Below are positions 3,406-63,989 of a DNA stretch of 64,000 bases, in pieces. Made by a program: the position numbers and the translations under genes. The stretch is taken from NCBI GenBank assembly GCA_049968235.1, contig JBMFRC010000004.1, positions 1 to 64,000 on the forward strand, read 5' to 3'. The DNA comes from Candidatus Hydrogenedens sp. Its GTDB lineage: Bacteria > Hydrogenedentota > Hydrogenedentia > Hydrogenedentales > Hydrogenedentaceae. The notes under the pieces are model-generated. The model saw nothing but the letters and a program-made list of their open reading frames with translations. It ran no database searches and was not told where the DNA came from. How positions within the stretch are numbered: position 1 is the first letter of the stretch; each line of letters opens with the position of its first letter.

Positions 3406-3740
3406 AAATATCTTCCCGATCTAAAAATCGTTTTTTTTTAAATTTGTTCTATTCACACGGAAACTCCCCAGAGCCCAAAACTCTCTTTTCATTTTTAATA
3501 AAACTAAAAGATAAATATAGCATGTAAGAAATCAAAATTCAAGAAGTTTTTTTTAATTTTCTAACCATTTGTTTAGCAACAACTTAAAAAGGAGAAGTTC
3601 TGTATGTTTTTAAACAATTTAATATGAATAAGTAAATATATAAACAAACACAAAAAAATATTAATAAGTTTGTTAATATTTATTTATGTTTTAATAGATA
3701 CAAATAAATAATTATGAGATTCGGTATATACAGAAAATTC

Positions 3741-12746: not shown

Positions 12747-13316
12747 CTATCTTAAGTTTTCTCTGTCATACTGTTCCAACAAAGTCAAAGTTTTAGCATA
12801 GTTAGCCAGTAAGTTTAAAATTTCCTGCTCTTGTCCAGCAAGTAATTCATGTTTTGCTTTTTCTTGTAAAAGTGATATTGCTCCGTGGAGTTCTTCAAAC
12901 TGCTTCTGTGATCGTAGAAGCCTTTCTTCATTTATCGTATAACCTTTAACCAGATGTTCTTTAAGCGTTTTAGTTGCCCAGATACGGAATTGAGTACCGC
13001 GTAAAGACTTAACTCTATAGCCTACAGAGATTATTACATCAAGGTTGTAAAAATCTATTTCTCTTTCTACCTGTCTTTTACCCTCTTTTTGAACTATTCG
13101 GAATTTCCGAATAGTTGAATTTTTATCAAGTTCTCTTTCTTTATATATATTTTTTATATGTTCATTGATAGTTGGTATCCCTTTATCAAAAAGTATTGAC
13201 ATCTGTTTTTGAGTGAGCCACACAGTTTCATCTTTAAGTCGAACTTCTAATTGAGGTCCTTCCTTTGAACTATAAATTACAATTTCACCTTTTTTGAAAT
13301 CGTCTTGTTGCTTCAT
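12747..13316 (-). CDS. RhuM-family domain protein. Probably the N-terminal half of a split RhuM-Fic/Doc gene.
   Basis: 189 aa. YNLDVIISVGYRVKSLRGTQFRIWATKTLKEHLVKGY is the conserved RhuM core. The ORF stops 77 nt before the Doc ORF start, in a different frame. Confidence 0.65.
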   Translation of the reverse strand: MKQQDDFKKGEIVIYSSKEGPQLEVRLKDETVWLTQKQMSILFDKGIPTINEHIKNIYKERELDKNSTIRKFRIVQKEGKRQVEREIDFYNLDVIISVGYRVKSLRGTQFRIWATKTLKEHLVKGYTINEERLLRSQKQFEELHGAISLLQEKAKHELLAGQEQEILNLLANYAKTLTLLEQYDRENLR

Positions 13317-27676: not shown

Positions 27677-27880
27677 AATCTTATTCCCTTTGTTTAACTA
27701 ATTCACAAATAGATAATAAATTTACAGAATAATGTTCTTCAAATGACGAATCTTCCTGTTGTTTAATACAAGGTCATTTTTTTCCATTGATAGGAAACTT
27801 TTTTCCTATTTTTATTTTTTTATCAGAACAGTAGATACAAAAAGTCTTGGTAATTAAGTTATTTATTTTTTTGCCGATAA

Positions 27881-27897
27881 TTGGTATAAGAATTGCT
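27881..27897 (+). promoter_or_regulatory. Candidate sigma-54 (-24/-12) promoter upstream of flgK.
   Basis: TTGGTATAAGAATTGCT keeps the GG-N10-GC spacing of the TGGCAC-N5-TTGCW consensus. It lies about 48 nt upstream of the flgK GTG start. A sigma-54 activator is encoded in the window. Confidence 0.35.
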
Positions 27898-27944
27898 ATT
27901 TTTTAACCAAATAATTAGTAATTTGTTTTTATAAGGAGAAATCT

Positions 27945-38539: not shown

Positions 38540-39670
38540 TCAAAGTATTTTTTGAGATATTATATTTATACTTCTTATTTCATTGAATAAGTCTTTTACC
38601 GTGCATATCACATTTACACCTGCTTGAGAATTTAACAGTTGCGTAATCTGGTCTGGATTCAAGGACTTAATATTCCATTCATTTATTTTTATAAGGGTTT
38701 CACCCCCTCTCAGATTCTCCAACCATGCAGAAGAGTTTTTTACGACGCCAATGACCCAACCCTCTTCATCGAGATAATCGAGCACGATACCTGTTCCTGT
38801 CCATTCCTTCACATCAGAAATATTCGTTTTTAAGAAACATATTTTTGATTCCTCATAGTTCATTTTGAGGACAAATTGTTTCCAGAAAGAAGTTCCTAAA
38901 GAAATTTCTTTTTCACCTGGAACTGAGATGGAAAGAAGATTCTGAAACTTTTGATTACCTAACCGTAATGTTTTTAATCGGAAATATTGAATTACCTTCT
39001 TATTACGGAAGTGAACAAATTTACTATCTCCTGTTATTAAAAACCTTTCATTTACAAAACTCATAGGAAAAATTACATATTCGTTCCTCACAAAATCAAT
39101 ATTAGCGACAACAACAATCTTATCATTGAGAGTAACTGGGATTTGTGGTATTGTACTTTCAGAAGAAAAAAATATTTTTTCACAGGCAATATCTTTTGTC
39201 TTAACTTTCTCTTCTATGGATATTAATTGCCATACAAGTTTCCCTTTCCCGAAATCTATATATATTTCAAAACCGGGATAATAAATAGGTAGTATTCCTT
39301 TTATAGGTACTCCAACTTTCCGTGATATATCTGATAAATCCGATAATATAATTTTTCCCTGATATTTGGGGATAAATGGTATATTACAATCAAATTCTTT
39401 TAAGGTGACATTTTTGTATTTCTGATATTTTTCTAAATTTGTATCATTTCTTTTTTCTAATATAGGGACAGAAATCCCCGCATCTAACAGATATAATGAT
39501 TGTGGATAATTATCGTTTGCATTGATAAGAATTGCCCCTCGCTGGATAGAAAAAGAGGCTTGAATTTGGTTGCCCTCCATAGAAAAGCAAGTAAAACATA
39601 ATAAAGTTCCAGTATAAATAAGAAAAGAGATTATGACTATATAGAGATATACCTTATTCCTAATCAGCAC
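38540..39670 (-). CDS. Membrane-anchored hypothetical protein with a C-terminal PDZ-like domain, possibly a retropepsin-like protease.
   Basis: 376 aa with an N-terminal TM. LLDAGISVPIL is a weak resemblance to a D(T/S)G aspartyl-protease motif. The C-terminal GWVIGVVKNSSAWLENLRGGETLIKINEW is PDZ-like. Confidence 0.35.
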   Translation of the reverse strand: MLIRNKVYLYIVIISFLIYTGTLLCFTCFSMEGNQIQASFSIQRGAILINANDNYPQSLYLLDAGISVPILEKRNDTNLEKYQKYKNVTLKEFDCNIPFIPKYQGKIILSDLSDISRKVGVPIKGILPIYYPGFEIYIDFGKGKLVWQLISIEEKVKTKDIACEKIFFSSESTIPQIPVTLNDKIVVVANIDFVRNEYVIFPMSFVNERFLITGDSKFVHFRNKKVIQYFRLKTLRLGNQKFQNLLSISVPGEKEISLGTSFWKQFVLKMNYEESKICFLKTNISDVKEWTGTGIVLDYLDEEGWVIGVVKNSSAWLENLRGGETLIKINEWNIKSLNPDQITQLLNSQAGVNVICTVKDLFNEIRSINIISQKIL

Positions 39671-39673
39671 AAA

Positions 39674-40411
39674 CTAATTTTTCCTTGTCATTATAGTTTC
39701 TATCCATAGTTTTATTTGTTCCTTTACATGGGCAAATGATTCTAATAAAATAAAATTCGTATCGTCTGTCGGATAGGTCCTCATCTCACAAAAGGAATGG
39801 TTTTTCTCGTATAACTGCAAGGAAAAATTATATGAGTTTTTATCATTTTCTCCCACAGATATAAATGTTGGGATATTGAGTAGATTGTTTTTTATTATAT
39901 CATAATTGTTGGGGTCACAATAGGGAGAAAGAAGAACAAGCCCTTCAATACAATCGGATTGTACTTCTTTGCACAGAGAGAAACATCCTAATTTGCCGGG
40001 TAAAAGAACAAATTTTTTGTCCTGAGGGAGGGCATTATTTAGAAAATTACAAATGGAATTTATATCACTGTTCGTATTGGGAGAACTTATATAACTATGA
40101 AATATAGATAGCCAATCTGCTACTAAAAATACAAGTTTATATTCATTGCTAACAAAGTCATTTAATACTGATTTTATTTTTTCAATATCTTCATCTTCTT
40201 CTACAAAGACAATAATAGCAATCTTTTTCTCTATTTCATTAGCAGAATTATGTGATATGTTTTGTAAGAAAACTGTATTTGAATTAATTGAAAAGGTATG
40301 TTCCGCAACGGGCGGAGGGATATTCTTTTTACACTGACAAAGAAACAACGGAAATACGATAAAAAGGGTTATAAAAAAGAGAACGATAGTTATTTTCTTT
40401 TTTAAGTTCAT
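39674..40411 (-). CDS. Lipoprotein-like hypothetical protein, possibly an alpha/beta-hydrolase fold.
   Basis: 245 aa. The signal sequence with Cys reads ...FPLFLCQC. It lies 3 nt upstream of the PDZ protein gene on the same strand, so likely co-transcribed. Confidence 0.35.
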   Translation of the reverse strand: MNLKKKITIVLFFITLFIVFPLFLCQCKKNIPPPVAEHTFSINSNTVFLQNISHNSANEIEKKIAIIVFVEEDEDIEKIKSVLNDFVSNEYKLVFLVADWLSIFHSYISSPNTNSDINSICNFLNNALPQDKKFVLLPGKLGCFSLCKEVQSDCIEGLVLLSPYCDPNNYDIIKNNLLNIPTFISVGENDKNSYNFSLQLYEKNHSFCEMRTYPTDDTNFILLESFAHVKEQIKLWIETIMTRKN

Positions 40412-43729: not shown

Positions 43730-44548
43730 CTATTTTTTCTTTTGCAGAAATCTTTTAAATTCTATAGTAAAAGTAAAACTATCAAAATCTTCTCGAAGTC
43801 TTGCAAATTTTGAATATCCAAGAGAAACTACAAATTCATCTTTTTTATTGATAGGTATTTCAAAACCGATATTAGTATCCAGACTGACTGTATTCCACTC
43901 GTCAGACAGATTTAAATCTACAAGATATAAAAGGGGAAGAAATTTCACTTTTACCTTTGCATCGTAGGTAGCATAGGTATAGGTGGCAGATGCAGAGAGA
44001 TATGGACGGGTCGCTTTTATTCGTTCTTTCCAACTTTCAAAATCCTTATGGATTGGGCTACCCCACGGAGAGAAATGGATTCCTATCCCAAAATAAAAAG
44101 CCATTCGCTTTATCTCAAAATCTGTGTGCAAAGGCATTAAGAGGATAGAGGGATGGGTTTGTTTTGTCCTAATTTTTCCGCCTTCTCCTCCTCCCTGTGC
44201 AGTAATAGACCATTTTGAATTAATCTGGTATCCAATTCCTGCGTGAGGAGCCCAAATTAAATGGTTATCCCGGAAATCGCTGACTGTTTTTACGGGTTCC
44301 TGGTCGGGAGCCAAAAAAACCATAATGGGGTCAAACAATTCCTTAACGGGTTTCTCACTTTCCATTTTGGGATATGGATTTACAAGACTGATAAACCAGA
44401 ACCATTTACTGTTTTCATTTTCACATGGTTCCAACGATATTGCTTTTGAGTTTTCTTGGACGCCGGATGTGTTATTTTTTAATAAATCCGCCTGAGATAC
44501 AAAAGAAATTATCATTCCTGCACATATAAGAAAGAAATTTATCCTCAT
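43730..44548 (-). CDS. Putative outer-membrane beta-barrel protein.
   Basis: 272 aa. The signal peptide reads MRINFFLICAGMIISFVSQA. Amphipathic beta-strands alternate along the sequence. Aromatic residues are present near the C-terminus. Confidence 0.4.
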   Translation of the reverse strand: MRINFFLICAGMIISFVSQADLLKNNTSGVQENSKAISLEPCENENSKWFWFISLVNPYPKMESEKPVKELFDPIMVFLAPDQEPVKTVSDFRDNHLIWAPHAGIGYQINSKWSITAQGGGEGGKIRTKQTHPSILLMPLHTDFEIKRMAFYFGIGIHFSPWGSPIHKDFESWKERIKATRPYLSASATYTYATYDAKVKVKFLPLLYLVDLNLSDEWNTVSLDTNIGFEIPINKKDEFVVSLGYSKFARLREDFDSFTFTIEFKRFLQKKK

Positions 44549-48662: not shown

Positions 48663-48756
48663 TTTTACATGTCATTTTATTTTAAAGTAAGAACCACTCA
48701 TTGATACAATTTATCAAATATATATTTCTATACCAGAATATAAAAAGGTGATAAAC

Positions 48757-50364
48757 ATGGCGAGTGACTCCACGGATATAAAAGCAGGCACGATTTTATT
48801 TAATGAAAAAATCATAAAGGATTTAATTCATCTTTTAGCCCAACAAATTGTTAATGATAATGATGTTGAAGAATTGGCTTTCATTGGAATACTGCGGAGA
48901 GGTTATCCTTTGGCAAAACGAATTGCAGAAGAAATTTTTAAGATTTGCAAAGTACTCCCGCCAGTAGGGGCGGTCTCAACAACACTTTTCCGAGACGACC
49001 TGAGAATAGGTCGTGGGGTTGTTCAATCTCATGGGACAACACATTTTTCCTTTGATATTAATCAAAGGACAATTATCCTTGTAGATGATGTTTTAGCAGC
49101 GGGGCGAACAATAAGAGCGGCAATGGACGAAATCATGTATTATGGCAGACCTAAAAAAGTACTGCTGGCATGTTTAATAGACCGTGGCGGAAGAGAAATT
49201 CCCATTCAACCCTCTTATTGTGCATGGAAACCAACCCTTGAAGCAATACCTCAAAACTTATGGATTTCTGTCTTGCTTAAAGAGACCGACGGAAAAGATA
49301 TGGTAATCATAGAAGAACAAAAAAGTAAGGCAGAAACTCCATTGCAAGAAGTTTCCACAAAGGAACCGGTGTTTAGTGCGGACCATCCTGTATTGAAGAT
49401 ATGGAAGCACAAAGACTTATTAGGTTTGCAATTTTTATCTAAAGATGAAATTGTCTCTATACTGGATATGGTTCCACCTTTTCTTGAAGTCATGGCACGC
49501 AGTACAGGTATAAAAAAAGTGCCTTTATTACAAGGGAGAGTAGTTGTTCACTGGTTTCATGAACCGAGCACAAGGACCTTCGCCTCTTTTGACTTAGCAG
49601 CGAAAAGATTAAGTGCAGATACCCTTTCCATATCAGCAGCAAGCTCCAGTGAGAAAAAAGGAGAAACACTTCACGATACTTTGTATAACATTGAAGCAAT
49701 GAAAACGGATATTCTTGTGGTAAGACATCGCTACTCAGGTGTGCCAAAACTTTTAGCAGATAGTCATCCTTCTCATGTAATAAATGCAGGAGACGGGCAA
49801 CACGAGCATCCTACACAAGGACTATTAGATGTTTTTACGATGAGGCAGTTCTATCGAAATCATAAAAGGGATATGAACATAGGACTGGAAGGGGCTAAAG
49901 TTTCGATTATTGGAGATATAACTCATAGTCGGGTGGCAAGGAGTAATATCTGGGCATTATTAAAATTAGGTGCTCAAATTACTCTTTGCGGACCTCAGAC
50001 TTTATTACCAAAATCCTTTGAAAAATTAGGTGTAAGGATTACAACGCACCTGAAAGAGGCACTTCTGGATGCGGATATAATTTATTCTTTACGGATTCAG
50101 ATGGAAAGGCAAACCAAAGGTTTGTTCCCAAGTATTCGGGAATATGTCCGTTTGTATCGTATAGACCGCGATACCATTCGATATGCACCGGAACATGCAA
50201 TTGTTATGCATCCGGGACCTATTAATCGGGACATAGAATTAGCAACGGAAATTGCAGATAGCCCAAGGAGTCGAATATTACAACAGGTTAGTCATGGTGT
50301 CGCTGTTCGCATGGCGGTTATGCATCTATTAGCCAATAGTCAATACAACCAGAATGGAGTATAG
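48757..50364 (+). CDS. In-frame fusion of the PyrR regulator / uracil phosphoribosyltransferase domain with aspartate carbamoyltransferase catalytic chain (PyrB).
   Basis: The PRTase motif is IILVDDVLAAGRTIRAA within the first 180 aa. It is followed by the ATCase motifs STRTFASFDLAAKRLSAD and HPTQGLLDVFTM. The start is more likely ATG 48757, which has an AGGTGA Shine-Dalgarno, than the track's GTG at 48748. Confidence 0.75.
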   Translation: MASDSTDIKAGTILFNEKIIKDLIHLLAQQIVNDNDVEELAFIGILRRGYPLAKRIAEEIFKICKVLPPVGAVSTTLFRDDLRIGRGVVQSHGTTHFSFDINQRTIILVDDVLAAGRTIRAAMDEIMYYGRPKKVLLACLIDRGGREIPIQPSYCAWKPTLEAIPQNLWISVLLKETDGKDMVIIEEQKSKAETPLQEVSTKEPVFSADHPVLKIWKHKDLLGLQFLSKDEIVSILDMVPPFLEVMARSTGIKKVPLLQGRVVVHWFHEPSTRTFASFDLAAKRLSADTLSISAASSSEKKGETLHDTLYNIEAMKTDILVVRHRYSGVPKLLADSHPSHVINAGDGQHEHPTQGLLDVFTMRQFYRNHKRDMNIGLEGAKVSIIGDITHSRVARSNIWALLKLGAQITLCGPQTLLPKSFEKLGVRITTHLKEALLDADIIYSLRIQMERQTKGLFPSIREYVRLYRIDRDTIRYAPEHAIVMHPGPINRDIELATEIADSPRSRILQQVSHGVAVRMAVMHLLANSQYNQNGV

Positions 50365-50367
50365 GTT

Positions 50368-51702
50368 ATGAAAATAGTCATAAAAAACGGTTGGGTCATT
50401 GAGCCTTCATCCTGTTTCTCAGGGAAAACCGATATTGGAATAGAAAACGGGGTAGTTTCGGCGGTGGGGTCTAATTTAAAGGGTGATATTTATATAGATG
50501 CAGAGGGTATGGTAGTTGCACCGGGGTTCGTAGATATTCATGTTCATTTTCGGGAACCCGGTTTCGAGTCGAAAGAGACTATTGCCACCGGAGCAAGAGC
50601 ATCGGCTCATGGGGGTGTTACTTCTGTTATTACGATGCCCAATACAATGCCCCCGATTGATAATGCAGGAATGGTAGAATTAGTAGTGAGACGAGCACAG
50701 GATTTGGATGGCATCCACATATACCCTGCGGCTTGTGCAACAAAAGGAAGGGAAGGAAAAGAATTAACCGAAATGGCAGATTTACTTCAATCCGGTGCTG
50801 TGGCAGTAACAGATGATGGTAATGATATAGAATCTTCATCGGTATTACGCCATGTTCTGGAATATGCGGGGATGGTGGGTATCCCCTACCTTGCTCATTG
50901 TGAGGATGAAGCACTAAGTGAGGGAGGGGCTATGAATGAAGGGATTGTGTCCGCACTTTTAGGAATACCAGGTATTCCACGTGAAGCAGAGGAAACACGA
51001 ATTGAGCGAAATATTCGACTTGCTAAATTAGCGAATGCTCCTATTCATATTCAACATGTTACTACAAAACGAGGAGTAGAAATTATCCGACAGGCAAAGA
51101 AGGAAGGAATTTCTGTAACCGCAGAAACCTGTCCCCATTATTGGATGCTAATAGACAGTCAAATTGAAAATTACAATTCAAATATGAAGATGAATCCGCC
51201 ATTACGCGAAAAAGAGGATGTTGACGCAATAATTGCAGGACTTCAAGATGGAACTATTGACTGTATAGCGACAGACCACGCTCCTCACACACGGACAGAA
51301 AAAAATGTCCCATTTCAAGAAGCACCTTTTGGGATTGTCGGTTTAGAAACATTATTGGGGTGTGTAATTAAAGGACTGGTAAAACCTGGGCACCTCAGTA
51401 TTGAAAAGGCAATTCAACTTTTAACAAAAAATCCTGCCAATATCATTAAAATCAATGCAGGAACTCTTCAAATAGGTGTTCCTGCGGATATTACAATTTT
51501 AAATCCTGATGAGGAATGGGTTGTTACAGAAGATTTTTTCTATTCTAAAAGTTCCAACTCGCCATTTATCGGAACAAAATTATATGGTAAAGTAAAAATT
51601 ACTATATGTTGTGGGAAAGTACTGTACGCTGACAAAGACATAACCTTGCCCGATGGATTATCTATATCCCCTACTTTTTTATGTAATAAACTTTTAATTT
51701 AA
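50368..51702 (+). CDS. pyrC: Dihydroorotase.
   Basis: 444 aa. DIHVHFREPG carries the metal-binding HxH. A carboxylated-Lys region and DHAPH are present. It starts 4 nt after pyrR-pyrB. Confidence 0.85.
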   Translation: MKIVIKNGWVIEPSSCFSGKTDIGIENGVVSAVGSNLKGDIYIDAEGMVVAPGFVDIHVHFREPGFESKETIATGARASAHGGVTSVITMPNTMPPIDNAGMVELVVRRAQDLDGIHIYPAACATKGREGKELTEMADLLQSGAVAVTDDGNDIESSSVLRHVLEYAGMVGIPYLAHCEDEALSEGGAMNEGIVSALLGIPGIPREAEETRIERNIRLAKLANAPIHIQHVTTKRGVEIIRQAKKEGISVTAETCPHYWMLIDSQIENYNSNMKMNPPLREKEDVDAIIAGLQDGTIDCIATDHAPHTRTEKNVPFQEAPFGIVGLETLLGCVIKGLVKPGHLSIEKAIQLLTKNPANIIKINAGTLQIGVPADITILNPDEEWVVTEDFFYSKSSNSPFIGTKLYGKVKITICCGKVLYADKDITLPDGLSISPTFLCNKLLI

Positions 51703-53329: not shown

Positions 53330-56302
53330 ATGAAACAGTTTATAGCAAAAATAATTATTGGACTTCCCCTTATACTATTAATAATTGTTTCTTTCTCATG
53401 TCCCAAAAATCCTTCTGATATTCCTTCTGAGTCGGGTAATACCCAATATATTGAAGGTAATTTAGATGAAGGAGAAACCGAAGGTATTTTTGAAGGGGAA
53501 GTAAAATTTACAAGTGCTGGAGTCCTGAACAACCGTAATTGGGAATATACTCCTACGACTACAACTGATGTCTCTGAAGGGAATGAAGGGGGAGAAAACA
53601 CAAGGGAATTGGTTGAACCGGATGTCTATCGTAGACTAAACAATATCCTTTTTGTACTAAATCAATATCGCGGTTTAACACTTGTTGATTTAGATAATAA
53701 ATCAGTTATTTCTAATGTCCCTATATATGGTTATCCACGAGATTTATATGTGGTAGATAATAGAGCCTATGTTCTGATTGGTTATACTGTTCGACACACT
53801 ATCGAGGATGGGATTATAAAAAAGACCACAGGGTCCCAATTGTATATTGTTGATATTGGGAATCCGGAGGTCCCTAAAATAATATCTGCACTAACATTAC
53901 CTGGAGATTTTATTGATAGCCGAATGCTCGGCGATGTTTTATATGCTGTAACTTCAGATTATCAATATTCATATATTGAAGATGCGACAGAAGGTGGAAA
54001 CATTTCTTCAAGTGCCACATGGACAAAAGAAGCAGGGAGCAAATGCTGGATAACCAGTGTCAATATAAAACAAGAGGAAAATCCTTCAATAACCGACCAG
54101 GTTGAATTTCCAGGTTATGGAACGGTTATTCAAGCATCAACTTCTTCAATATATGTATGTGCTTCCGATTGGAATAACAACTCTACTCAACTAACTTATA
54201 TAGATATAACAAACCCTTCCGGTAAAATTGAATCCTATTCTCTGGGAACTGTTCCAGGGTATGTAGCAGACCGTTTTAAGTTAGATGAATGGGATGAAAC
54301 ATTACGCGTGGTTTCAAACACATGGTGGTCTGAACGGCATACTTATTTAACTATTTTTGATGTTTCAAATCCTTCACAAGGATTTCCGCAACTTTCTCAA
54401 ATAACAATTCCTGATGCTCAAGGTGAGACATTATATGCAACTCGGTTTGCAGGACCATTAGCCTATTTAGTTACTTATTTAACCATAGACCCATTATTTG
54501 TTCTCGATTTAACTGACCCCTCAAAACCCGAAGTCAAGGGACAATTAAAGGTTCCTGGATGGTCTGTCCATATAGAACCTATTGCAAATAATCAACTTAT
54601 TGCATTAGGCATTGATGACACGGAAAATCAACGCCGTGTTAAAGTAAGTTGGTTTGATGTTTCAGCCCCGAATAATCCCGAAGAAAAGTCGGTCGTTTCT
54701 TTAGGAGAAGGCTGGACATGGTCTTCCGCATTCAGTGATGTAAAATCATTTGCAATTCTGGGGAATCTTGTTATTGTTCCATTTAGCGGATGGAATGGGA
54801 ATGAATACAAAGAACAATTGCAATTTATTGTGTTAAATATGGAGAACCAGCAACTTATGTCCCTTGGTTCTGTAGATATGAAAGGGCAGGTATCACGAAC
54901 AATTAAATATAACGACCTTTTCTATGCTATTACTTCAGAATATATTCATGAAATTCAATGTGATGGAGTAAATCCTCCTGATTTAACAAATAACAGTATT
55001 CTCCTCGTTGAAAATGTGGCCGATGTTATGGAATTGAGTGCAAGTGGTGTAGTTATGGAAATCATAAACCAAACGGAGCAAAAAAATATAGGAATTCGGT
55101 TAACCGAAGGCAACACTATCTTCAGTTCTATTTCTATTGAAACAAATGGCTGGCTGATGGATACAATAAAAGTCTCTAATAATGCAGTGGCCCTGGTTAT
55201 TAACGAGTGGTCGCAAGAGCATTCCTATGAATCTTATTATAGGGTGGTTTTTGTAACTATAGATGAAAATTTTATGCCTTCGATATTTAAAGATATTAAA
55301 CTTCCATTAGCACCGTATTATTCTTATTGGGGATGGTGCCGGGGATGTGATTATATGCCTGTACCAATGCCCGAGAGACTTACCAATAATATAGGTTCTG
55401 TTGCTTTATCTGAAGGTATATCTTCTGATTCTCAAAAAGTGATTGCACCCTATTATTGGTGGTATCCCATAACGAATACGAAACCTTCTATGGTTTGCGG
55501 TAATTATCTCGTTTTAAGAGGTTGGGGGAACTCGTATGAGTATATAATTGGCAATCAGACTACCCCTTATGATGGCTTTGCAATTCTAAATCTGGATAAT
55601 CCTGAAGATATTAGAACTGTTGGACTGGGGTATAACAATATCGTTTCGCTTTTAGAAGCCAGTGGAAAATTATTCCTTACCTTACAAAAAAATGTGAGTT
55701 CCGAAAATGATTATTATCCCCTTGTTGCTTATTATTTGGGCGAAATAGATTTAATTTCTTTAGAGGAACCTGACTTTGCTAATATTCCGGGAATATTACA
55801 GTCTTCTAATGAGCAAGGAAACATACTTTTCTTGAAAGATTGGCAATATAGTTCGACAGGGAATTACTATGACTTTGAACAATGGATACACAGTATTCAA
55901 TGGGAAAAGAATAAACCCGTAAAAATAATTGATTCTTACAAGTTACCGACAACATGGGGAAATGTCAGGATTAATTTGCCTTATCTTTTAGTACTAACGG
56001 GATATGACAATCTCGTTCTTGAAAAGATAGATATTACTACAGATGGCAGATTCGTCAGCCCTTGCAAAACAAAGATCGGAAATGTATGGGGGGATATTTT
56101 GGGAATGACTACAAATCATTTATATCTTTCTCTTGATGGAGCATCTGTATTGTTAATGAATTTAGGTTATGGAGAAAACCCAGTAATGAATAATATCTAC
56201 CCCATACCTAATTACCCTCAAAAATTCAGAGTGGGAAAACTTGGTATATATATTGTATCTGGTTACTCTGGATATATATTCTTACCCTTTCAAATTTTAT
56301 AA
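53330..56302 (+). CDS. Large secreted, possibly lipidated, beta-propeller-domain protein.
   Basis: 990 aa. The signal peptide ends VSFSC, a weak lipobox. An N-terminal acidic EGNLDEGETEGIFEGE segment follows. Long beta-rich repeats are consistent with the Beta_propel-type family. Confidence 0.5.
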   Translation: MKQFIAKIIIGLPLILLIIVSFSCPKNPSDIPSESGNTQYIEGNLDEGETEGIFEGEVKFTSAGVLNNRNWEYTPTTTTDVSEGNEGGENTRELVEPDVYRRLNNILFVLNQYRGLTLVDLDNKSVISNVPIYGYPRDLYVVDNRAYVLIGYTVRHTIEDGIIKKTTGSQLYIVDIGNPEVPKIISALTLPGDFIDSRMLGDVLYAVTSDYQYSYIEDATEGGNISSSATWTKEAGSKCWITSVNIKQEENPSITDQVEFPGYGTVIQASTSSIYVCASDWNNNSTQLTYIDITNPSGKIESYSLGTVPGYVADRFKLDEWDETLRVVSNTWWSERHTYLTIFDVSNPSQGFPQLSQITIPDAQGETLYATRFAGPLAYLVTYLTIDPLFVLDLTDPSKPEVKGQLKVPGWSVHIEPIANNQLIALGIDDTENQRRVKVSWFDVSAPNNPEEKSVVSLGEGWTWSSAFSDVKSFAILGNLVIVPFSGWNGNEYKEQLQFIVLNMENQQLMSLGSVDMKGQVSRTIKYNDLFYAITSEYIHEIQCDGVNPPDLTNNSILLVENVADVMELSASGVVMEIINQTEQKNIGIRLTEGNTIFSSISIETNGWLMDTIKVSNNAVALVINEWSQEHSYESYYRVVFVTIDENFMPSIFKDIKLPLAPYYSYWGWCRGCDYMPVPMPERLTNNIGSVALSEGISSDSQKVIAPYYWWYPITNTKPSMVCGNYLVLRGWGNSYEYIIGNQTTPYDGFAILNLDNPEDIRTVGLGYNNIVSLLEASGKLFLTLQKNVSSENDYYPLVAYYLGEIDLISLEEPDFANIPGILQSSNEQGNILFLKDWQYSSTGNYYDFEQWIHSIQWEKNKPVKIIDSYKLPTTWGNVRINLPYLLVLTGYDNLVLEKIDITTDGRFVSPCKTKIGNVWGDILGMTTNHLYLSLDGASVLLMNLGYGENPVMNNIYPIPNYPQKFRVGKLGIYIVSGYSGYIFLPFQIL

Positions 56303-56308
56303 AAAGTC

Positions 56309-56557
56309 TTGAATTCGTCTATGGCATTTGTATTAAAGTCAAAAACAATAAAGTGTCCAAATTGTTTCTATGAGGGAAAAGCAAAAGTTGAAGAGACAGG
56401 TTGTGGGTTGTGGTTACTTTTGTTAGTCGTTTTGATAGTATCTTTTAGTTTCCCACCATTGTTTATTGTAATCCCTCTGATGTTTTTATGGTTATTGCTA
56501 AAACCCGCTAAACAGATATGTCCTCGTTGTAAATATCCTTACCCTATATTTAAATAA
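56309..56557 (+). CDS. LITAF-like membrane-inserted zinc-ribbon protein.
   Basis: 82 aa. CPNC and CPRC knuckles flank a hydrophobic stretch of about 40 aa, which is the LITAF/SIMPLE-like architecture. It starts 7 nt after the beta-propeller gene. Confidence 0.5.
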   Translation: MNSSMAFVLKSKTIKCPNCFYEGKAKVEETGCGLWLLLLVVLIVSFSFPPLFIVIPLMFLWLLLKPAKQICPRCKYPYPIFK

Positions 56558-56577
56558 GTAGAAACCTCATCTAAATC

Positions 56578-57729
56578 TCAGGCGGGCATGGAGTTTAATG
56601 CGGTAGATTTGCTTTGCTCTTTTCTTTTGTCCTTGTATTCATCCATCAATTTTGTAAATCTTTTGAAGAGATACCTGCTATCATGGGGACCCGGAGATGC
56701 TTCTGGATGATATTGAACGCTAAAAACGGGTAATTCTTTGTGACATAATCCCGAACAGGTCATATCATTAAGATGAACATGAGAAATTTCGACTTTTTCT
56801 AAATCCAACGACTTAGGGTCAACGGCAAAACCATGATTTTGAGAAGTAATCTCTACTTTTCGTGTTTCCATATGCATTACTGGCTGATTCGCACCCCGAT
56901 GTCCAAATTTTAGTTTATATGTTCTTCCACCGAGAGCATGTCCAATAATCTGATGCCCCAAACAAATTCCTAAAATAGGAATATTATTTTTAATAATTTC
57001 TTGGACTATAGGATAGATGTAAGTCAGGGCAGATGGGTCTCCAGGACCATTTGATAAAACAACCCCATCAGGATTATATGATAGAATCTGTTTGGCAGGC
57101 GTAGTTGATGGAACGACTACTACTGAACAATTATGCTCTTTTAACAATCGTAAGATATTATATTTTACCCCGAAATCCATAACTACGACACGATATTTAG
57201 TCCTTTCAGGAAGTTCCCATTCATAAGGTTGGGATATGGTGGCTTCTTTAACAAAATCACTTCCTGCCATATCCGGTGCAGATTTTGCTTTGTTAAGAAG
57301 GGATTGGGGATTTGAATCCACTGTGCTAATAATTGCTTTCTGGTTCCCTTTTGTTCTTAAAATACGCGTAATTTTTCTTGTATCTACCTGGTCTATCGCT
57401 ACCACATTATATTTTTTGAGAAATTCTGGAAGTGACATTGTTGCACGCCATGAACTGGGCTGAAAACAACATTCCCGCATTACAAAGCCACGGGCAAAGA
57501 CCGAACGGGATTCCACATCCTCTGGATTACATCCATAGTTGCCAATATGGGGATATGTCATTGTAATAATCTGACCTGCATAAGAAGGGTCGGTAAGAAT
57601 CTCTTGATAACCCGTCATACTCGTGTTAAAAACCAATTCTCCGACTGCTTCTCCTTCGGCGCCAACGGACCTCCCCAAAAATACTGTTCCATCCTCTATT
57701 ACCAGAAGGGCTTGTTTCTCCTCTTGCAT
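56578..57729 (-). CDS. carA: Carbamoyl-phosphate synthase small (glutaminase) subunit.
   Basis: 383 aa. GICLGHQ carries the catalytic Cys. A type-1 GATase His/Glu region is present. The N-terminal CPSase small-chain domain is present. Confidence 0.85.
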   Translation of the reverse strand: MQEEKQALLVIEDGTVFLGRSVGAEGEAVGELVFNTSMTGYQEILTDPSYAGQIITMTYPHIGNYGCNPEDVESRSVFARGFVMRECCFQPSSWRATMSLPEFLKKYNVVAIDQVDTRKITRILRTKGNQKAIISTVDSNPQSLLNKAKSAPDMAGSDFVKEATISQPYEWELPERTKYRVVVMDFGVKYNILRLLKEHNCSVVVVPSTTPAKQILSYNPDGVVLSNGPGDPSALTYIYPIVQEIIKNNIPILGICLGHQIIGHALGGRTYKLKFGHRGANQPVMHMETRKVEITSQNHGFAVDPKSLDLEKVEISHVHLNDMTCSGLCHKELPVFSVQYHPEASPGPHDSRYLFKRFTKLMDEYKDKRKEQSKSTALNSMPA

Positions 57730-57917
57730 GTTTTTTCCTTTGTGTGATTTTTAGTTATAATACATTCTATAATATTAGCATTGTATTATATAAAATAAAC
57801 ATTTTTTAAGTCGAATTTATTTAACAGAAGATTTTGCGGGTTCTTGGAATTATTTTTTTTATAACTGTGTTTTGTATACTGTGATTAAAAGAACAAATTG
57901 GAGTAAATAAAAAATCT

Positions 57918-58667
57918 ATGAGTCAAACAGAAAAAAAACTAAAAAAGTCGGATTTGACCTTAGAACTACTTGGAGTTCCAAGAACTATATTCAAAAAGAT
58001 TAAAGAATGTTCCTCTATAGCAAAATCACCTCCAAAAGATATATCGTATATATGGATAAAAGTATCCGGACAAGACATAAATAAAAACACGAAGGAACAA
58101 TGTAATCGATTAAATCTTGATGACTGGTTAAATATTGTTGATGAGGCAGTTTCTGAGGGAGCCAATTGGCTTGTGCTAACCGTTCATGTTCCTATAGACC
58201 AAATGAAAGAGGTTATCGAAATATGTCAATGGTCTCAAAATACCTATAATATGAAAGTAGGTTTATTTTTATGTAGAGAAAAAATTTCTACAAATGAAAT
58301 AAAAATTCTTAGCAGTCTAAAAAAAGAATTAACACAGATTTTTGTTAAAAAGAAGGCTCTTGAACAATTTAAAAAATTACGAGAAATGGGATTGTTTTTA
58401 GGTATTGCAGACCCTCAAAAATATGGAGACAAACCTAATTGTGAGGGAGCGTCAAAGTTACTCTATGTTGACAATGACGGTTCTATTTATACCTGCGGTC
58501 TTGTATCAGGAATGAAAAATTACAAATTGGGAAATATATACGAAAAAAAATTTCAGGAAATAGTAAAAGACCCATCATTACCCCATAGCGTAGAAGAAAA
58601 AATTCATAAAGTAAATGAAGGCTGTGATGGCTGTCCCTCTCTGTTAATGAAATACCTCAAAAAATAA
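57918..58667 (+). CDS. SPASM/twitch-domain protein lacking the radical-SAM CxxxCxxC triad.
   Basis: 249 aa. The C-terminal C-x17-(DGSIYTC)...LGNIYEKKFQEIV...CDGC matches the SPASM/twitch pattern. The N-terminal 170 aa contain no CX3CX2C. Confidence 0.45.
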   Translation: MSQTEKKLKKSDLTLELLGVPRTIFKKIKECSSIAKSPPKDISYIWIKVSGQDINKNTKEQCNRLNLDDWLNIVDEAVSEGANWLVLTVHVPIDQMKEVIEICQWSQNTYNMKVGLFLCREKISTNEIKILSSLKKELTQIFVKKKALEQFKKLREMGLFLGIADPQKYGDKPNCEGASKLLYVDNDGSIYTCGLVSGMKNYKLGNIYEKKFQEIVKDPSLPHSVEEKIHKVNEGCDGCPSLLMKYLKK

Positions 58668-58688
58668 GACCCCCATAATCCACTTGGG

Positions 58689-60248
58689 TTATCCTAATGC
58701 TTTTACAACTTCTCTTAAATCAAGTCCGAGATATTGTATGCTTTTCTCCCTTATCTTTAATGCTTCACGGATAACTTCATCCCGAATGGATTGCTCTCCC
58801 GGTAAACCTGCTATTGAAGAAATAAAAAGGATATGTGCCAGGTCTTTAGATTTTCCCGGGGCTTTATAGGGTTCTAAATAATGGCATAAAGCATGAACAA
58901 CTACTTCCGGGAATTTCCATCTGCTCGCTAATAGAGATGCCGTAACTGCATGATTGATAGTAAAATATTCCGTTTCTTTTCTCAATCGTATTTCTGGAAG
59001 AGAATCTTTCATAATCTTTTTATATTCTTCCTGACCCACCATATATAGTACAATAGCCCCTATTTGATGTATCAAGGCGGTAGTATACGCAAGAGAAGGG
59101 CTTACTCTCTTTGAATTTTGCGCTAATTTTTCTGCAAGTTTTGCAGAAAGTTTTGACCTTCCGCTTATGGGCAGGACAGGATATTCTGAAATAGGCAAAT
59201 GACTTTCTTTAATGTGATTCATCATTACCTGTATTCCATTGGGACCGAGAAGAGTAAGGGCAGACCATATACTACCTATCCTCTTCTCCTCTGATACAAT
59301 GGATGTATTAGCCCAACGAAGTAATGCAGTTGCTAACGAAGGTTCGTCTGTAAAGATGGAACTTAAATCTTCTATATTGGGAGAACTGTCATCTAAAACC
59401 ATACTTAAAGCGAGTTCGGCTGTGGGGGGAATAGGAAGATATTCTAATTCGTCAATTAACAGTTCAACATTTTTCCTTTCCCTTTCATAAGTTTCCTCCG
59501 GAAATTGAACAACAGAATCGGCATGTTGTCCTACTACCCCGGGTTTTGTTTTTATGATTCTACTTTCTGGCGTTGGGACAGATGAAGTAGTAGAAATAGA
59601 AGGAGTATGGTAAATTCCTGTATCTCCCGTTTTCCCCTTGTGATATTTATTTATTGTCTCCTCAATTTCTGTAATTCGGGCAAGAGTGGGCTTTACCCTC
59701 AATTGTGTAAATTGTTCAACAAGAAAAACTGTTTCTTTATCAATAGGACATGCCATTGCTAAAGTCAGATTTCTTCCTAATTTATCAACAGGAAACACAA
59801 ACCTTTCATCACATAATTTCTTCGGGACTAATTCAACAATTTCTTTATCTATATACAGACGATTAATATCAATCTTAGGGAAACCTGAATTTCTTGAAAG
59901 AATATCAAACAATTTTTCTGCAGGTAATTTTTCATTATGATACAGTATTTTTAAAAGGTATCCCCCTTGTTTCTTTTGTATTTCTATTGCCTCTTCCAAA
60001 TCTTGACTTGTTATTAAGCCTGATGTAATAAGCCATTGAGCCAGAGTACCTGTAAAATTAGCACCTGATGCAGAAGTATCTACTCCGCCAATTTGTCCAC
60101 CTACAGAAGTTTCCGGAGAGGAAGGAATATAACGAATAATATTACCACAACGGACACATTTAAATGTCTTCCCCTCTGCTGAGGTCGGCACTTTCATTCT
60201 TTGACCACATTTGGCACAACTAATTATTTCGTATTCTTGTTCACTCAC
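58689..60248 (-). CDS. Zinc-ribbon, GspE-N/MshEN-like and HDOD three-domain protein.
   Basis: 519 aa. The N-terminal ribbon reads CAKCGQ...CVRCG. Residues about 60 to 200 resemble the T2SS-E N-terminal (MshEN) domain. The C-terminal 200 aa are an HDOD-like helical bundle. Confidence 0.5.
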   Translation of the reverse strand: MSEQEYEIISCAKCGQRMKVPTSAEGKTFKCVRCGNIIRYIPSSPETSVGGQIGGVDTSASGANFTGTLAQWLITSGLITSQDLEEAIEIQKKQGGYLLKILYHNEKLPAEKLFDILSRNSGFPKIDINRLYIDKEIVELVPKKLCDERFVFPVDKLGRNLTLAMACPIDKETVFLVEQFTQLRVKPTLARITEIEETINKYHKGKTGDTGIYHTPSISTTSSVPTPESRIIKTKPGVVGQHADSVVQFPEETYERERKNVELLIDELEYLPIPPTAELALSMVLDDSSPNIEDLSSIFTDEPSLATALLRWANTSIVSEEKRIGSIWSALTLLGPNGIQVMMNHIKESHLPISEYPVLPISGRSKLSAKLAEKLAQNSKRVSPSLAYTTALIHQIGAIVLYMVGQEEYKKIMKDSLPEIRLRKETEYFTINHAVTASLLASRWKFPEVVVHALCHYLEPYKAPGKSKDLAHILFISSIAGLPGEQSIRDEVIREALKIREKSIQYLGLDLREVVKALG

Positions 60249-60458
60249 ACATTTATTCCCAGTGATTTCACTGATTTTTTATCGTATATTATATTTTATC
60301 ATAAAATATTTATTAAGAAATACAAATTTTTTGTTTATTTTCTATTTCTAATATGATAAACTATTGGTATGAAAAAAACAAGTTTTTAAGGTATTTTATT
60401 GACAAAAATTTTTATTAATAATAATTGTGATTTTTAATGTTATTAGAAGGAAAAATAA

Positions 60459-63400
60459 ATGCTACTTGAAGAGTTAGATGATATATTTAAAAAAACACAT
60501 GAATTATTTTTCCGTCGTAATTTTATTGGAGCAAATAAGAATTTAAACACACTTCCCGTGGATTTTAACAATTTTATAAACTATTTATTTTTAAAGGCTG
60601 ATTTATTTACAGTTTTAGAAGATTGGAATGAATTATTGAATCTTGTCCCAATAATTGAAAAACAAATTAGTGAATTAGAAGAAAGGATTTCATGGTTTAC
60701 TATACACTTCGATGAAGAAGAGAAAGATTACCTGAGAGAGATAGTATCTAATTATCATTACCGATTAGAACAAATAAAGGAAGAACTTAATAGACAAACA
60801 CAAAAAATAGAGGAGAAAACGGAAGAAAAAATAATCTATGAAGAGCAAATCCGTGAATTGAAAAGTCAGCTTATTCACATGAAAGAGAAAAAAGAGGAAG
60901 AAGAAGCTATTCGTAAGGCTTTATCTGTTGAATTAGAAGAACTCAAGAAACAGGAAAAAAGGAAAAATGAAGAATTATTACGGGCACAGGAGGAATTGAG
61001 ACACTTAAAAGATTCTCTGGATGAAAAAGAGCAGGAAGTCCAGACCGCAGCATTGGAGCGTGCCCAACGAGAAAAAACAATCGCTCTCATGGAAGCGGAA
61101 TTAAATTCCCTTCAAGAAAAAGCAGAAGAGACAGCCCAATCTCAGGCAAGTTTAATCGAGGAATTAAAGCAATTAAAAGAACTGAGTAAAACAAAAGAAG
61201 AGGCTTTGCAACAGGCTCAACATCAACTTCAAGAATTACAACAAACATTAAAATCGCGTGAAGCGGAAATTACTGTATTAGAAAATGAAAAGAAAGAACG
61301 CGAGAAACAGGTTCAATATTTAGAACAGGAATTAGGAAAACTAAATGAGCAAGCACGAGATGCTGAAAAATCTCAAGAAGATTTGCAAAAGCAAATAGAA
61401 GAGCTGCGAAGGGTTGAGGAACAGAAATCGAAAGAATTGGATGAAACTCGGGATGCTTTACAGCAACTACAACAGCAACTTAAAGAAAAAGAGCAATTAA
61501 TACAATCATTAGAAAGACAGTCATCAGAAAGCCAAAAAGAGGTTGAACGGCTTCGGGAGGAAATGAAAGCCACACAATCTCAAGCCAAACATGCTCAGGA
61601 AGCAGAACAACAGTTACAAAAGGAAATAGAGCAACTTCGAAAAGCCACACAATCCAAAGAAATGGCTCTTGATAACACTCGGGGTGAATTAGAAAAAGTT
61701 CAGCAAATGCTGGCAGAACGGGAGGCTCTACTTCAAAATGCCGAAAAACGAAGTATGATGACTGTCGAAAATCTTCAGCAAATACAGAGAGAATATGAAC
61801 AATTAAAGAATCAAGCGGAACAATATATTAAAACTGAACAAACAATGGTTCAAGAACTGGAACTGTTAAGGAAAGGAGAACAGGAGAAGGCAAATGCTCT
61901 TGAGGAAGCACAGCATAAGGTTAAAGAATTACAAGAAGAACTGAAAGCACGCGAAATAGCATTTCAAGAGTCCCAAAAGGCACAGGAACAGTATATCCTG
62001 CAAATACAAAGATTACAAGAGGAATTAAATTCTGTTCGTGAAAAAGCCCATGAAGCAACTCATTCTGAAAGCCAAATTGAAGAGGAATTAACTGTTTTCC
62101 GTAAGAAACTTACTTCTAAAGAGCAAGAATTTATTGAATTACAAAATAAATTAGACCAATTATCCGCTTCTCTGCTTGAAAAAGAAACTGCTATTCGAGA
62201 AGAGATTAAAAAACGGACGGAAAAAGAAGAACTTTTAGCCAAACTACAGGAAGAATTGGTCTTATTACACCAACGAACCCATTCTACACAAACACACCAA
62301 GAAATACTTGAACAGGAAATTCAATCTTTAAAACATCGCGAAACAGAAAAAAATACAGAATTAGATAAAGCACGAGAACAACTCAATTCTTTACAACAGA
62401 CATTATCCCAGAGAGAACAAGAAATCGCTAAGATTAATGAAGAAAAGGTTCGAAAAGAAAAACAGTTGGAAGACCTTATGAGTGAAATGGAGGCTTTACG
62501 GTCTCAAACATCTATGTTATTAAGTTCTCGTCAACAACTCAGGCAGGAATTGGAGCAATTAAAGCAAAAACAAATGTTCTCTAAATCTGAACCTGAAAAA
62601 GAGACTTCAACCGCAACAAAGCAAACCTCTTCTGTTAGTCTGTTTGAAGAAATTCCTGAAGCAATACTGGCTTCTGCAAGCATTAGTGTTGCTAAAGGGA
62701 ATAATAAATTTACAATGTTAGTAACTGTAATTGGAATTATTGTGGTTTTATGTGCTGGAATAGGTATTGGTTATTATTTTTCACGGGGTAAAATAGGACC
62801 TCAAAATCAAGTTGCTCAACAAAATGTTGAACAGAAAGATATTGTTAACAAACCAGAACCAACTCAGATAACATCACAAGTTGATGAAAAATCCGCCATA
62901 CCTGCAACACCCGCCATAATTGAAACAACAAAGGAAAATACGGAACAGACTTCCACCCCTCCTCAACAGGCAACGGAACCAGAAAAGAAAAGTGTAATAC
63001 TTTCATTCCCGGAAAATATATCTTTAGGTTCCTTATTCTATCAGGACAAACAGGTATCTGACAGTAATAATTGGACACAGTTACAGGAGGCGAAAGGGAG
63101 TGTAGAAGTCAATCCAGAGTGGAAAATTCAATTAAGGACAAACTTGGGACTATTGCCCCGAATTATGAATTTAAATTCGGGAATATTGGGAAAAATTTCG
63201 GTTCTGACATTGGACTCTATACCTCAGGAAGAAAGTGTCTTAAAATGGTTATCTCAGGTGAATTTTGGAACAATCTATATTGATAATGATGTATCTGAGA
63301 GGATACTAAATGAAATTAAGTCTAATTATTCAAATTTGAATATCATCTGTAAAAATGTAATTTCAGATATTATAGAAGATAAACCCCTTCCTGAAAGGAC

Positions 63401-63989
63401 CATCGTATTTCCTGAAAACAAATCTTTAGGGAAAATCCTTACTCGAGCATGGGGAGAACCATTACAAACGGAATGGAAACCTTTTACAGATGCAAAGGGA
63501 ACAATATATATTCCCAGAAATACAGAAGTAAAGTTACAAATGGAAATTGAAGGAGCCCGCGAAATGTCCTGGCTTATGAATTTACAACCGAATGATATTC
63601 AAGCGTTAGGCATGGTAGGCTACGGAGTTAATGACGAAAAAATAGGTTACATCAGCCATTTAACAGGACTAAAGAGTTTGCAGTTAGTTCAGACCGGTGT
63701 TTCAGATGCGGGAATCTTAAAGTTAAAAAATTTGCGAAATTTAAGAGAAGTAAAGTTATACACAATTAATATTACGGATAGAGGATTTGAAGTATTTGAT
63801 TCTTTTCCGCTTTTAGAAGAGTTATGGATACAACAGGCAAAAATAACAAATGCAAGTGTAGGGAAAATTTGCAAAATGAAGAACCTAAAGCGGTTACATT
63901 TAGCAAATACAGGAATTTCTCCTGAGGGACTTTTGCAAATACAATCTTCTTTAACTCAATGTGTTATAACTCCACGTGGGACAAGTTAA
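60459..63989 (+). CDS. Giant coiled-coil, TM and LRR protein.
   Basis: 1176 aa. About 700 aa of E/K/Q-rich heptad coiled coil are followed by a single TM, VTVIGIIVVLCAGIGIGYYF. The C-terminal approximately 430 aa end in RNI-type leucine-rich repeats (LTGLKSLQL...LKNLRNLREVKL...LKRLHLANTGI). Confidence 0.6.
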   Translation: MLLEELDDIFKKTHELFFRRNFIGANKNLNTLPVDFNNFINYLFLKADLFTVLEDWNELLNLVPIIEKQISELEERISWFTIHFDEEEKDYLREIVSNYHYRLEQIKEELNRQTQKIEEKTEEKIIYEEQIRELKSQLIHMKEKKEEEEAIRKALSVELEELKKQEKRKNEELLRAQEELRHLKDSLDEKEQEVQTAALERAQREKTIALMEAELNSLQEKAEETAQSQASLIEELKQLKELSKTKEEALQQAQHQLQELQQTLKSREAEITVLENEKKEREKQVQYLEQELGKLNEQARDAEKSQEDLQKQIEELRRVEEQKSKELDETRDALQQLQQQLKEKEQLIQSLERQSSESQKEVERLREEMKATQSQAKHAQEAEQQLQKEIEQLRKATQSKEMALDNTRGELEKVQQMLAEREALLQNAEKRSMMTVENLQQIQREYEQLKNQAEQYIKTEQTMVQELELLRKGEQEKANALEEAQHKVKELQEELKAREIAFQESQKAQEQYILQIQRLQEELNSVREKAHEATHSESQIEEELTVFRKKLTSKEQEFIELQNKLDQLSASLLEKETAIREEIKKRTEKEELLAKLQEELVLLHQRTHSTQTHQEILEQEIQSLKHRETEKNTELDKAREQLNSLQQTLSQREQEIAKINEEKVRKEKQLEDLMSEMEALRSQTSMLLSSRQQLRQELEQLKQKQMFSKSEPEKETSTATKQTSSVSLFEEIPEAILASASISVAKGNNKFTMLVTVIGIIVVLCAGIGIGYYFSRGKIGPQNQVAQQNVEQKDIVNKPEPTQITSQVDEKSAIPATPAIIETTKENTEQTSTPPQQATEPEKKSVILSFPENISLGSLFYQDKQVSDSNNWTQLQEAKGSVEVNPEWKIQLRTNLGLLPRIMNLNSGILGKISVLTLDSIPQEESVLKWLSQVNFGTIYIDNDVSERILNEIKSNYSNLNIICKNVISDIIEDKPLPERTIVFPENKSLGKILTRAWGEPLQTEWKPFTDAKGTIYIPRNTEVKLQMEIEGAREMSWLMNLQPNDIQALGMVGYGVNDEKIGYISHLTGLKSLQLVQTGVSDAGILKLKNLRNLREVKLYTINITDRGFEVFDSFPLLEELWIQQAKITNASVGKICKMKNLKRLHLANTGISPEGLLQIQSSLTQCVITPRGTS

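Follow-up and report, generated by a model that had tools for sequence, protein, structure and literature searches.

Introduction

FimV and HubP are large single-pass polar scaffolds of pilus and flagellar systems, in which a periplasmic binding domain is combined with a long cytoplasmic stretch of repeats to which motility regulators are recruited. Equally relevant are the pilus ATPases PilB, PilF and MshE, which carry MshEN (T2SSE_N) domains, and the HDOD regulators SadB, Cj0248 and MmoQ, of which SadB acts as a ligand-independent adaptor (PMC12075610). Here I compare with these systems a group of genes at the right end (positions 56309-63989) of a 64,000-nucleotide stretch of DNA from Candidatus Hydrogenedens sp., of the phylum Hydrogenedentota (contig JBMFRC010000004.1, assembly GCA_049968235.1; the whole stretch is called the window below). 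At its centre are two divergent genes, F and E, with a third, D, beside them. F encodes a protein of 1176 amino acids (aa) with a coiled coil, a predicted transmembrane (TM) segment and leucine-rich repeats (LRRs), E a 519-aa protein that joins a zinc ribbon to MshEN and HDOD domains, and D a 249-aa SPASM protein.

A previous sequence-only reading of the window described five odd genes (A, B, D, E and F) interrupted by carA and proposed that the five form one envelope or signalling module. All six open reading frames (ORFs) are present, and nearly all of its domain calls were confirmed with Pfam and NCBIfam: a beta-propeller in A, a LITAF-like domain in B, SPASM in D, and MshEN plus HDOD in E. 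Its statement that the five genes have no defined function is also still reasonable. However, when gene order was compared among relatives, F, E and D were co-conserved beyond the genus whereas A, B and carA adjoin them only within it. The 8-kb stretch is thus a composite of three unrelated units (carA, A with B, and F-E-D), what looked like a cluster of five genes is a juxtaposition peculiar to the genus, and the idea of a single module is reasonable for the true unit, F-E(-D), but not for all five genes.

The neighbourhood of F, E and D is specific to Hydrogenedentota, and its stable core is the divergent pair F and E. The best-supported reading of F-E(-D), judged from its sequences, is that of a variant of HDOD/MshEN-type signalling that is made of known domains, confined to the phylum and so far uncharacterised. 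Its hallmarks are a quantised 77-residue rod, a degenerate cyclic di-GMP (c-di-GMP) site and a twitch protein without the S-adenosylmethionine (SAM) cluster, and in the literature I found no paper describing either an MshEN-HDOD protein family or the pili of Hydrogenedentota. An odd-looking run of genes in one genome can evidently be a recent juxtaposition, and it is only through comparison with distant relatives that the conserved core was told from its passengers.

A conserved neighbourhood of F, E and D

The comparison of gene order took in 66 related loci. It draws on 56 loci with E homologues from GTDB species genomes, to which I added 8 loci from metagenomes around homologues of A, 2 from an identical-protein look-up of E and 1 from an intermediate relative; loci are cited by number (as in L067). 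The proteins of the window were mapped onto these loci and all ORFs were then clustered. Loci are called genus-level where E is at least 66% identical to that of the window.

F (60459-63989, plus strand) lies directly upstream of E (58689-60248, minus strand) in 34 of the 56 loci, and the divergent orientation is kept in every one of the 34 that hold both genes. In about 24 loci D (57918-58667, plus strand) comes next after E and is encoded on the other strand. In the window E and F share an AT-rich intergenic region of 210 bp (60249-60458), and 21 bp separate D from E. At distant loci where F, E and D remain adjacent, E is only about 28-35% identical while the neighbouring RibBA is still at about 70%, and the F-E pair is found where E is at about 28-33% and RibBA at 68-72%; taken together, E, D and the C-terminus of F are 28-42% identical where RibBA is at about 70%, and are therefore fast-evolving yet still adjacent. 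A third set of loci, L053 among them, holds E homologues that stand alone.

The strongest indication that F and E are kept together for their own sake comes from a lineage with giant versions of F (1500-1900 aa; L033, L035, L039, L040, L043 and L049). Here F is still divergent from E, but the flanking genes encode 4'-phosphopantetheinyl transferase (PPTase), TetR, FabH and Etf proteins, and D, the rib genes and the pil genes are all absent. The genus Hydrogenedens presents a different rearrangement, whose breakpoint lies exactly outside D: pilMNOPQ are replaced by carA, B and A, and D stays with E.

The pil genes belong to the more distant relatives. At 15 distant loci one finds pilM, pilO and the pilQ secretin at 0.5-1.5 kb past D; matches to PF11104, PF04350 and PF00263 confirm the three, and ORFs the size of pilN and pilP stand between them. 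Moreover, at L053 (2347-7185 and 9827-11086) an E homologue of greater divergence is some 2.6 kb away from a pilB-pilT-pilB cluster, which is a second, independent association of the E family with pilus genes. Three observations make the type IV pilus plausible as a target: E has a PilB-type N-domain (see below), the linkage to pilMNOPQ is ancestral, and E is linked to pilB and pilT at L053. My working model is that F is a membrane scaffold or receptor, E a cytoplasmic adaptor and D an accessory protein, the three most likely acting on the type IV pilus machine; based as it is on sequence, I offer it as the leading but tentative interpretation, somewhat short of probable. The ancestral neighbourhood would have had pilMNOPQ beyond D and the rib operon beyond F.

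Several observations weigh against this model. The rib operon and nusB are just as conserved beside F. L008, L067, L019 and the giant-F lineage have no D. The trio is transcribed as three separate units, with D and E convergent and E and F divergent. The pilMNOPQ genes are not near the trio in the genus, and tblastn of the PilM, N, O, P, Q and Rib proteins against the 64-kb window gave no matches. Finally, the charges flanking the TM segment of F are balanced, and the orientation of this protein in the membrane is a prediction.

Several of these points feed an alternative in which there is no module, and F, E and D, each independent, would be adjacent through inherited synteny in a slowly rearranging region. 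The unrelated ribD-ribE-ribBA-ribH-nusB operon is conserved beyond F in at least 13 loci, so synteny in Hydrogenedentota can persist without a functional link, and both the loss of D in several lineages and the alternating strands of the three genes fit such a history. The same has been read into the consensus scan for promoters and terminators (56200-60600), where counts were at or below shuffled expectation, although a scan no better than shuffled sequence is uninformative. Inherited synteny alone does not sit well with the divergent F-E pair that survives in the giant-F lineage when all other neighbours have changed, nor with a genus-level rearrangement that broke exactly outside D and not within the trio. 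I consider it unlikely, yet it carries the greatest weight among the alternatives, followed in falling order by c-di-GMP sensing by E, a peptide-modification cassette around D and a defence island.

The last of these can be dealt with here. Large repetitive proteins and atypical domain content might suggest anti-phage defence or a mobile island, but scanning the five proteins A, B, D, E and F with PADLOC gave only a coiled-coil artefact to JetC, the GC content matches that elsewhere in the window, and throughout the phylum the genes keep their place beside the rib and pil operons. Conserved chromosomal synteny effectively refutes this explanation, and I give it next to no credence.

A few neighbouring genes deserve mention in their own right. 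At L067 an acyl-carrier-protein (ACP) gene (PF00550; 11696-11947) stands in place of the missing D, and at L008, which also lacks D, an ORF of the same size occupies the matching position (11675-11926). At L035, in the giant-F lineage, the PPTase gene (3591-4361) abuts F. These neighbours may be coincidence or a hint of a carrier-protein link.

As for pilus genes in the window itself, a PilT-like ATPase (a T2SSE domain without the N-domain) is encoded divergently from flgK at 26624-29645, and the genome thus has both pilus-retraction and flagellar genes. At 7475-8353 there is a protein with a prepilin-type N-methylation motif and DUF1559, of a kind abundant in Planctomycetota-like genomes.

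Protein F: a long rod in steps of 77 residues

F is predicted to be bitopic, and consists of a TPR-like head, a rod, a TM helix, a linker rich in Pro, Thr and Gln, and a region of beta-modules and LRRs. The sequence-only reading had described a coiled coil, one TM segment and an ectodomain of LRRs of the ribonuclease inhibitor (RNI) type; the hydrophobicity scan agrees with it on the TM segment, and phmmer, the AlphaFold2 (AF2) model and Foldseek on the LRRs. The N-terminal head is TPR-like and weakly conserved in the alignment, and the only strong sequence-family matches of the protein are coiled-coil artefacts (SMC, Rad50).

The E/K/Q/L-rich rod (residues 101-716; 60759-62606, plus strand) is made of eight in-register repeats of 77 residues, or 11 heptads. 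Its BLOSUM autocorrelation peaks at lags of 77, 154 and 231, and the repeat rows align without insertions or deletions. Each of the 32 F homologues (L003-L051) likewise has its highest autocorrelation at 77 residues. The rod differs in length between lineages, and in many homologues the position of the TM segment shifts by multiples of 77 residues (about 748, 903, 1063 and 1210). At the DNA level Tandem Repeats Finder reported only trivial short repeats in F, so that the period is visible in the protein alone. Both the architecture of F and its 77-residue repeat are conserved across Hydrogenedentota.

The Kyte-Doolittle scan finds a single hydrophobic segment in F (residues ~747-776), with the predicted TM helix at residues ~749-772 (62703-62774, plus strand), and complete homologues of F likewise have a single TM segment. 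The region that follows (62985-63986, plus strand) contains two FPxxxSLG beta-modules, the second of which leads into five RNI-like LRRs (residues ~1040-1170). Repeats of this type are strand/helix units of about 24 residues that build an alpha/beta horseshoe. Although the Pfam LRR_4 match is sub-threshold, phmmer against the PDB retrieves LRRC15 (1e-10) and ribonuclease inhibitor (6e-4), the AF2 model gives five strand/helix units with block-mean confidence (pLDDT) of 93-98 at residues ~975-1165, and a Foldseek search with the C-terminal model retrieves the LRR of NLRP1, FBXL2 and ribonuclease inhibitor. Since the three methods agree, the RNI-type label is correct. The first beta-module (residues ~816-920) was modelled with a pLDDT below 50. 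The homologue search with the C-terminus was swamped by generic LRR proteins and yielded no full-length orthologues, but the sequences that it gave sufficed for a good model of the LRR half.

The nearest relatives of this C-terminal region are proteins of Planctomycetota/Phycisphaerae with FPxxxSLG modules and "TDAGL" RNI-like LRRs, which share the beta-module and LRR unit with F at 23-30% identity. In these proteins the unit follows N-terminal signal or anchor sequences. Unlike F, they are either secreted or joined to sigma/anti-sigma, M56 or kinase domains, and the long coiled-coil rod is absent from all that were retrieved. Fusions of the LRR module with sigma-70, M56 peptidase, thioredoxin and Ser/Thr kinase domains also occur. 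The signal sequences and the fusions in other phyla argue for an extracytoplasmic, sensor-like location, and the C-terminal region of F is probably periplasmic.

In general plan F recalls FimV and HubP, although I know of no sequence relationship between them. The domain order of F is the opposite (its N-terminus would be cytoplasmic), it has LRRs and not LysM, and its coiled coil keeps a strict 77-residue repeat. In the working model F would be an inner-membrane scaffold whose periplasmic beta-module and RNI-type LRR region binds an envelope ligand or protein. The cytoplasmic rod, about 90 nm long if it forms one continuous coiled coil, would end in the TPR-like head and serve as a docking platform.

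Protein E: a degenerate MshEN domain joined to HDOD

E begins with a zinc ribbon of the form CxxC...CxxC (residues 8-37; 60138-60227, minus strand). Its cysteines C11, C14, C31 and C34 are nearly invariant in the homologue alignment, and Pfam zinc-ribbon models match it weakly. It is followed by the MshEN-like domain (residues 68-204; 59637-60047, minus strand) and the HDOD domain (residues 271-456; 58881-59438, minus strand). The hydrophobicity scan found no TM segment in E, which is thus taken to be soluble. The family is large, with at least 109 representatives of 50%-identity clusters at E<=1e-30, mostly of 450-540 aa.

The MshEN domain matches PF05157 at 4e-11 (43.2 bits against a cut-off of 23.1), and in the PDB it is closest to the N-domains of two pilus ATPases, PilF (2e-17) and PilB (4e-13). 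It resembles the domains of PilB, PilF and MshE in its helical layout of two motifs, which in E are joined by the five-residue linker KKQGG. Unlike those proteins, E has no ATPase domain, both its motifs have lost Arg and Gly from RLG, and MshEN is joined to HDOD and a zinc ribbon. The 24-residue consensus of the motif is RLGxxL(L/V/I)xxG(L/V/I/F)(L/V/I)xxxxLxxxLxxQ. Motif 1 of E reads TLAQWLITSGLITSQDLEEAIEIQ, with R replaced by T and G by A, so that it starts TLA instead of RLG. Motif 2 reads YLLKILYHNEKLPAEKLFDILSRN, with R replaced by Y, G by L and G10 by E, and starts YLL. Both motifs fail even the relaxed pattern [RKPN]hGxxhhxx[GAS]hh... (PMC5013675).

These substitutions bear on the suggestion, made from the sequence alone, that E senses c-di-GMP, or more fully that it is a c-di-GMP receptor in which MshEN senses and HDOD relays the signal to motility. 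The PF05157 match is above cut-off and the NCBIfam model for an MshE-related c-di-GMP motif reaches 32.3 bits, a little short of its cut-off of 38. In addition, more distant members of the family keep a canonical RIGExL...Q motif 1, which suggests that binding may be ancestral in the family and that an ancestor of E may have bound the nucleotide. However, R9 and Q32 of MshEN are pivotal for binding, with L14 also highlighted (PMC12943098, citing PMC5013675), and the motif Arg is lost in seven of the seven genus-level orthologues. With both Arg and Gly gone from both motifs, c-di-GMP sensing by E is improbable in this genus, and the suggestion did not hold up.

The HDOD assignment is firmer. 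The domain matches PF08668 at 9e-25 (87.8 bits against a cut-off of 22.9) and retrieves the HDOD structures Cj0248, MmoQ and 3HC1 from the PDB, Cj0248 being the best match. The catalytic HD dyad is degenerate and reads HQ, within ALIHQIG, much as the metal/catalytic dyad of SadB is degenerate. E shares PF08668 with SadB, Cj0248 and MmoQ; the N-terminal partner of HDOD is YbaK-like in SadB and a receiver domain in MmoQ, both different from E. To return to the adaptor proposed in the working model, E would, in this genus, be non-enzymatic and cytoplasmic, and would act through contacts of its PilB-type N-domain and HDOD and not through c-di-GMP.

Protein D and the Nif11 ORF of distant relatives

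D was described in the sequence-only reading as a SPASM/twitch protein with no radical-SAM core, a description that is half right. The SPASM match (PF13186, 1e-7; also TIGR04085) is clear, and the CxxxCxxC motif of the SAM cluster is absent from D, from all 22 of its homologues at the loci and from every one of 49 homologues of about 250 aa, in whose alignment no N-terminal Cys is among the invariant or nearly invariant columns. Without CxxxCxxC, radical-SAM chemistry by the usual route is impossible for D. The BtrN/SuiB/CteB-like barrel, on the other hand, is kept. The AF2 model (pLDDT 83) retrieves CteB, SuiB, PqqE and BtrN in Foldseek at E-values of 6e-6 to 1e-4, with a TM-score of 0.47 over 218 columns against BtrN, and has the fold of a partial TIM-barrel with a C-terminal auxiliary-cluster domain.

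The cysteines of D follow only the twitch-type pattern CX17C...CX2C, four of the seven in the SPASM motif, which serves two auxiliary clusters. All four (C175, C193, C236 and C239) are invariant in the 49 homologues, and a profile alignment matches them to Cys of BtrN and CteB that likewise lie in the C-terminal region; those of BtrN I take to be its auxiliary-cluster ligands Cys169, 187, 232 and 235. D therefore resembles BtrN, CteB, SuiB and PqqE in modelled fold, and BtrN and CteB in the aligned C-terminal cysteines, but differs from radical-SAM enzymes in that the whole D family is without the SAM-cluster motif. It is also distinct from the SPASM-only protein of GeoRSP systems (TIGR04304), scoring 22 bits against a cut-off of 300. 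D is thus a pseudo-enzyme with a radical-SAM fold, and it has probably retained one auxiliary Fe-S cluster. For the working model this would make it an accessory Fe-S protein, possibly redox- or iron-dependent, in which radical-SAM chemistry has been lost.

In 12 distant loci an ORF of 79 aa with a Nif11 domain (PF07862) lies between E and D (for example L009:11376-11675 and L014:11494-11733, plus 10 other loci). This arrangement raises the question of whether D and the Nif11 ORF of relatives form a modification cassette for a ribosomally synthesised and post-translationally modified peptide (RiPP) that merely happens to lie beside E, an idea to which the fold of D and its weak NCBIfam matches to SPASM/twitch peptide maturases, including the nif11-class TIGR04064, lend some colour. 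But the SAM-cluster motif is missing throughout the D family, as set out above. The Nif11 ORFs encode no Cys, and no variable core follows their leader-like region, so that they do not resemble a normal RiPP precursor. In the window there is no Nif11 ORF at all (tblastn with the Nif11 protein gave no match), and the gap between D and E is just those 21 bp. With both the SAM-cluster motif and the precursor core missing, I rejected the RiPP cassette as very improbable.

A bolder version of the working model would draw all of these parts together. Together with D, and with the Nif11 protein in most lineages, F and E would constitute an undescribed, phylum-specific form of transmembrane type IV pilus control: a periplasmic LRR receptor on an n x 77 "ruler" (8 to about 20 units, depending on lineage) would position E, a mimic of the PilB N-domain, relative to the basal body, while the fossil radical-SAM/Nif11 pair would act as a redox-sensitive protein-protein switch. 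I regard this version as doubtful. If the F-E pair does work with the pilus machine, however, surface motility or adhesion in an uncultured phylum would be governed by components that differ from the proteobacterial FimX/PilZ/FimV systems, an MshEN domain could keep a role after the loss of c-di-GMP binding, and there would be a natural coiled-coil spacer that changes length in exact steps of 77 residues.

Passenger genes: carA, A and B

A, B and carA adjoin D-E-F only at genus level, where the order is pyrR/pyrB-pyrC-GFO oxidoreductase-A-(B)-carA-D-E-F. carA (56578-57729, minus strand; TIGR01368, 4e-153 in NCBIfam) is a housekeeping gene of the pyrimidine pathway that groups with pyrB and pyrC and lies outside the module. 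In the window pyrR-pyrB and pyrC are at 48748-51702, 5 kb from carA and on the opposite strand. A single ORF (48748-50364) joins a PyrR-like phosphoribosyltransferase domain to aspartate carbamoyltransferase (PyrB), and pyrC is next.

A (53330-56302, plus strand; 990 aa) matches Beta_propel (PF09826) at 2.7e-76 in Pfam and, at loci that have it, always follows pyrB-pyrC-GFO oxidoreductase. It had been called a lipoprotein. The N-terminal hydrophobic segment and a Cys24 that is invariant among homologues make this plausible, but the candidate lipobox reads S-F-S-C, and Phe at -2 is atypical against [LVI][ASTVI][GAS]C. A is thus plausibly a secreted or lipid-anchored beta-propeller protein and a neighbour at genus level.

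B (56321-56557, plus strand; 78 aa, or 82 aa from a TTG at 56309) scores 30.8 bits against the zf-LITAF-like model PF10601 (3.4e-7), above the gathering cut-off of 23.8. Two CxxC knuckles, C16PNC19 and C71PRC74, flank a hydrophobic, putatively membrane-embedded segment (residues ~31-65), and the CPNC...hydrophobic...CPRC pattern is kept in 4 homologues. Since homologues begin MAF, the start is probably the ATG at 56321, 18 nt past the stop of A; with no Shine-Dalgarno sequence visible before B, the translational coupling to A that had been proposed is not established. Nor are A and B a conserved pair, a possibility that I rejected: L005 and L066 lack B, and in L062 and L063 it went undetected, although A is present in all four, and at L005 carA and A are only 129 bp apart with no B between them. 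B is therefore lineage-specific and outside the conserved core, and by its sequence a LITAF-like membrane zinc ribbon. A and B would be genus-specific envelope proteins placed beside F-E-D by rearrangement.

Other features of the window

Rfam and tRNA scans of the whole window found nothing. Near its left end (201-3740) are recR, def and dnaA (1537-2916, minus strand), followed by a gene-free gap of 824 bp (2917-3740), and this gap beside dnaA is possibly a replication origin. For five sizeable ORFs of 245-602 aa (13542-15350, 34687-36429, 38540-40411 and 43730-44548) Pfam gave no match at E<=1e-5. At 12747-13316 an ORF for a RhuM-family "virulence protein" stands among glycoside-hydrolase-like genes and could mark a small mobile insertion.

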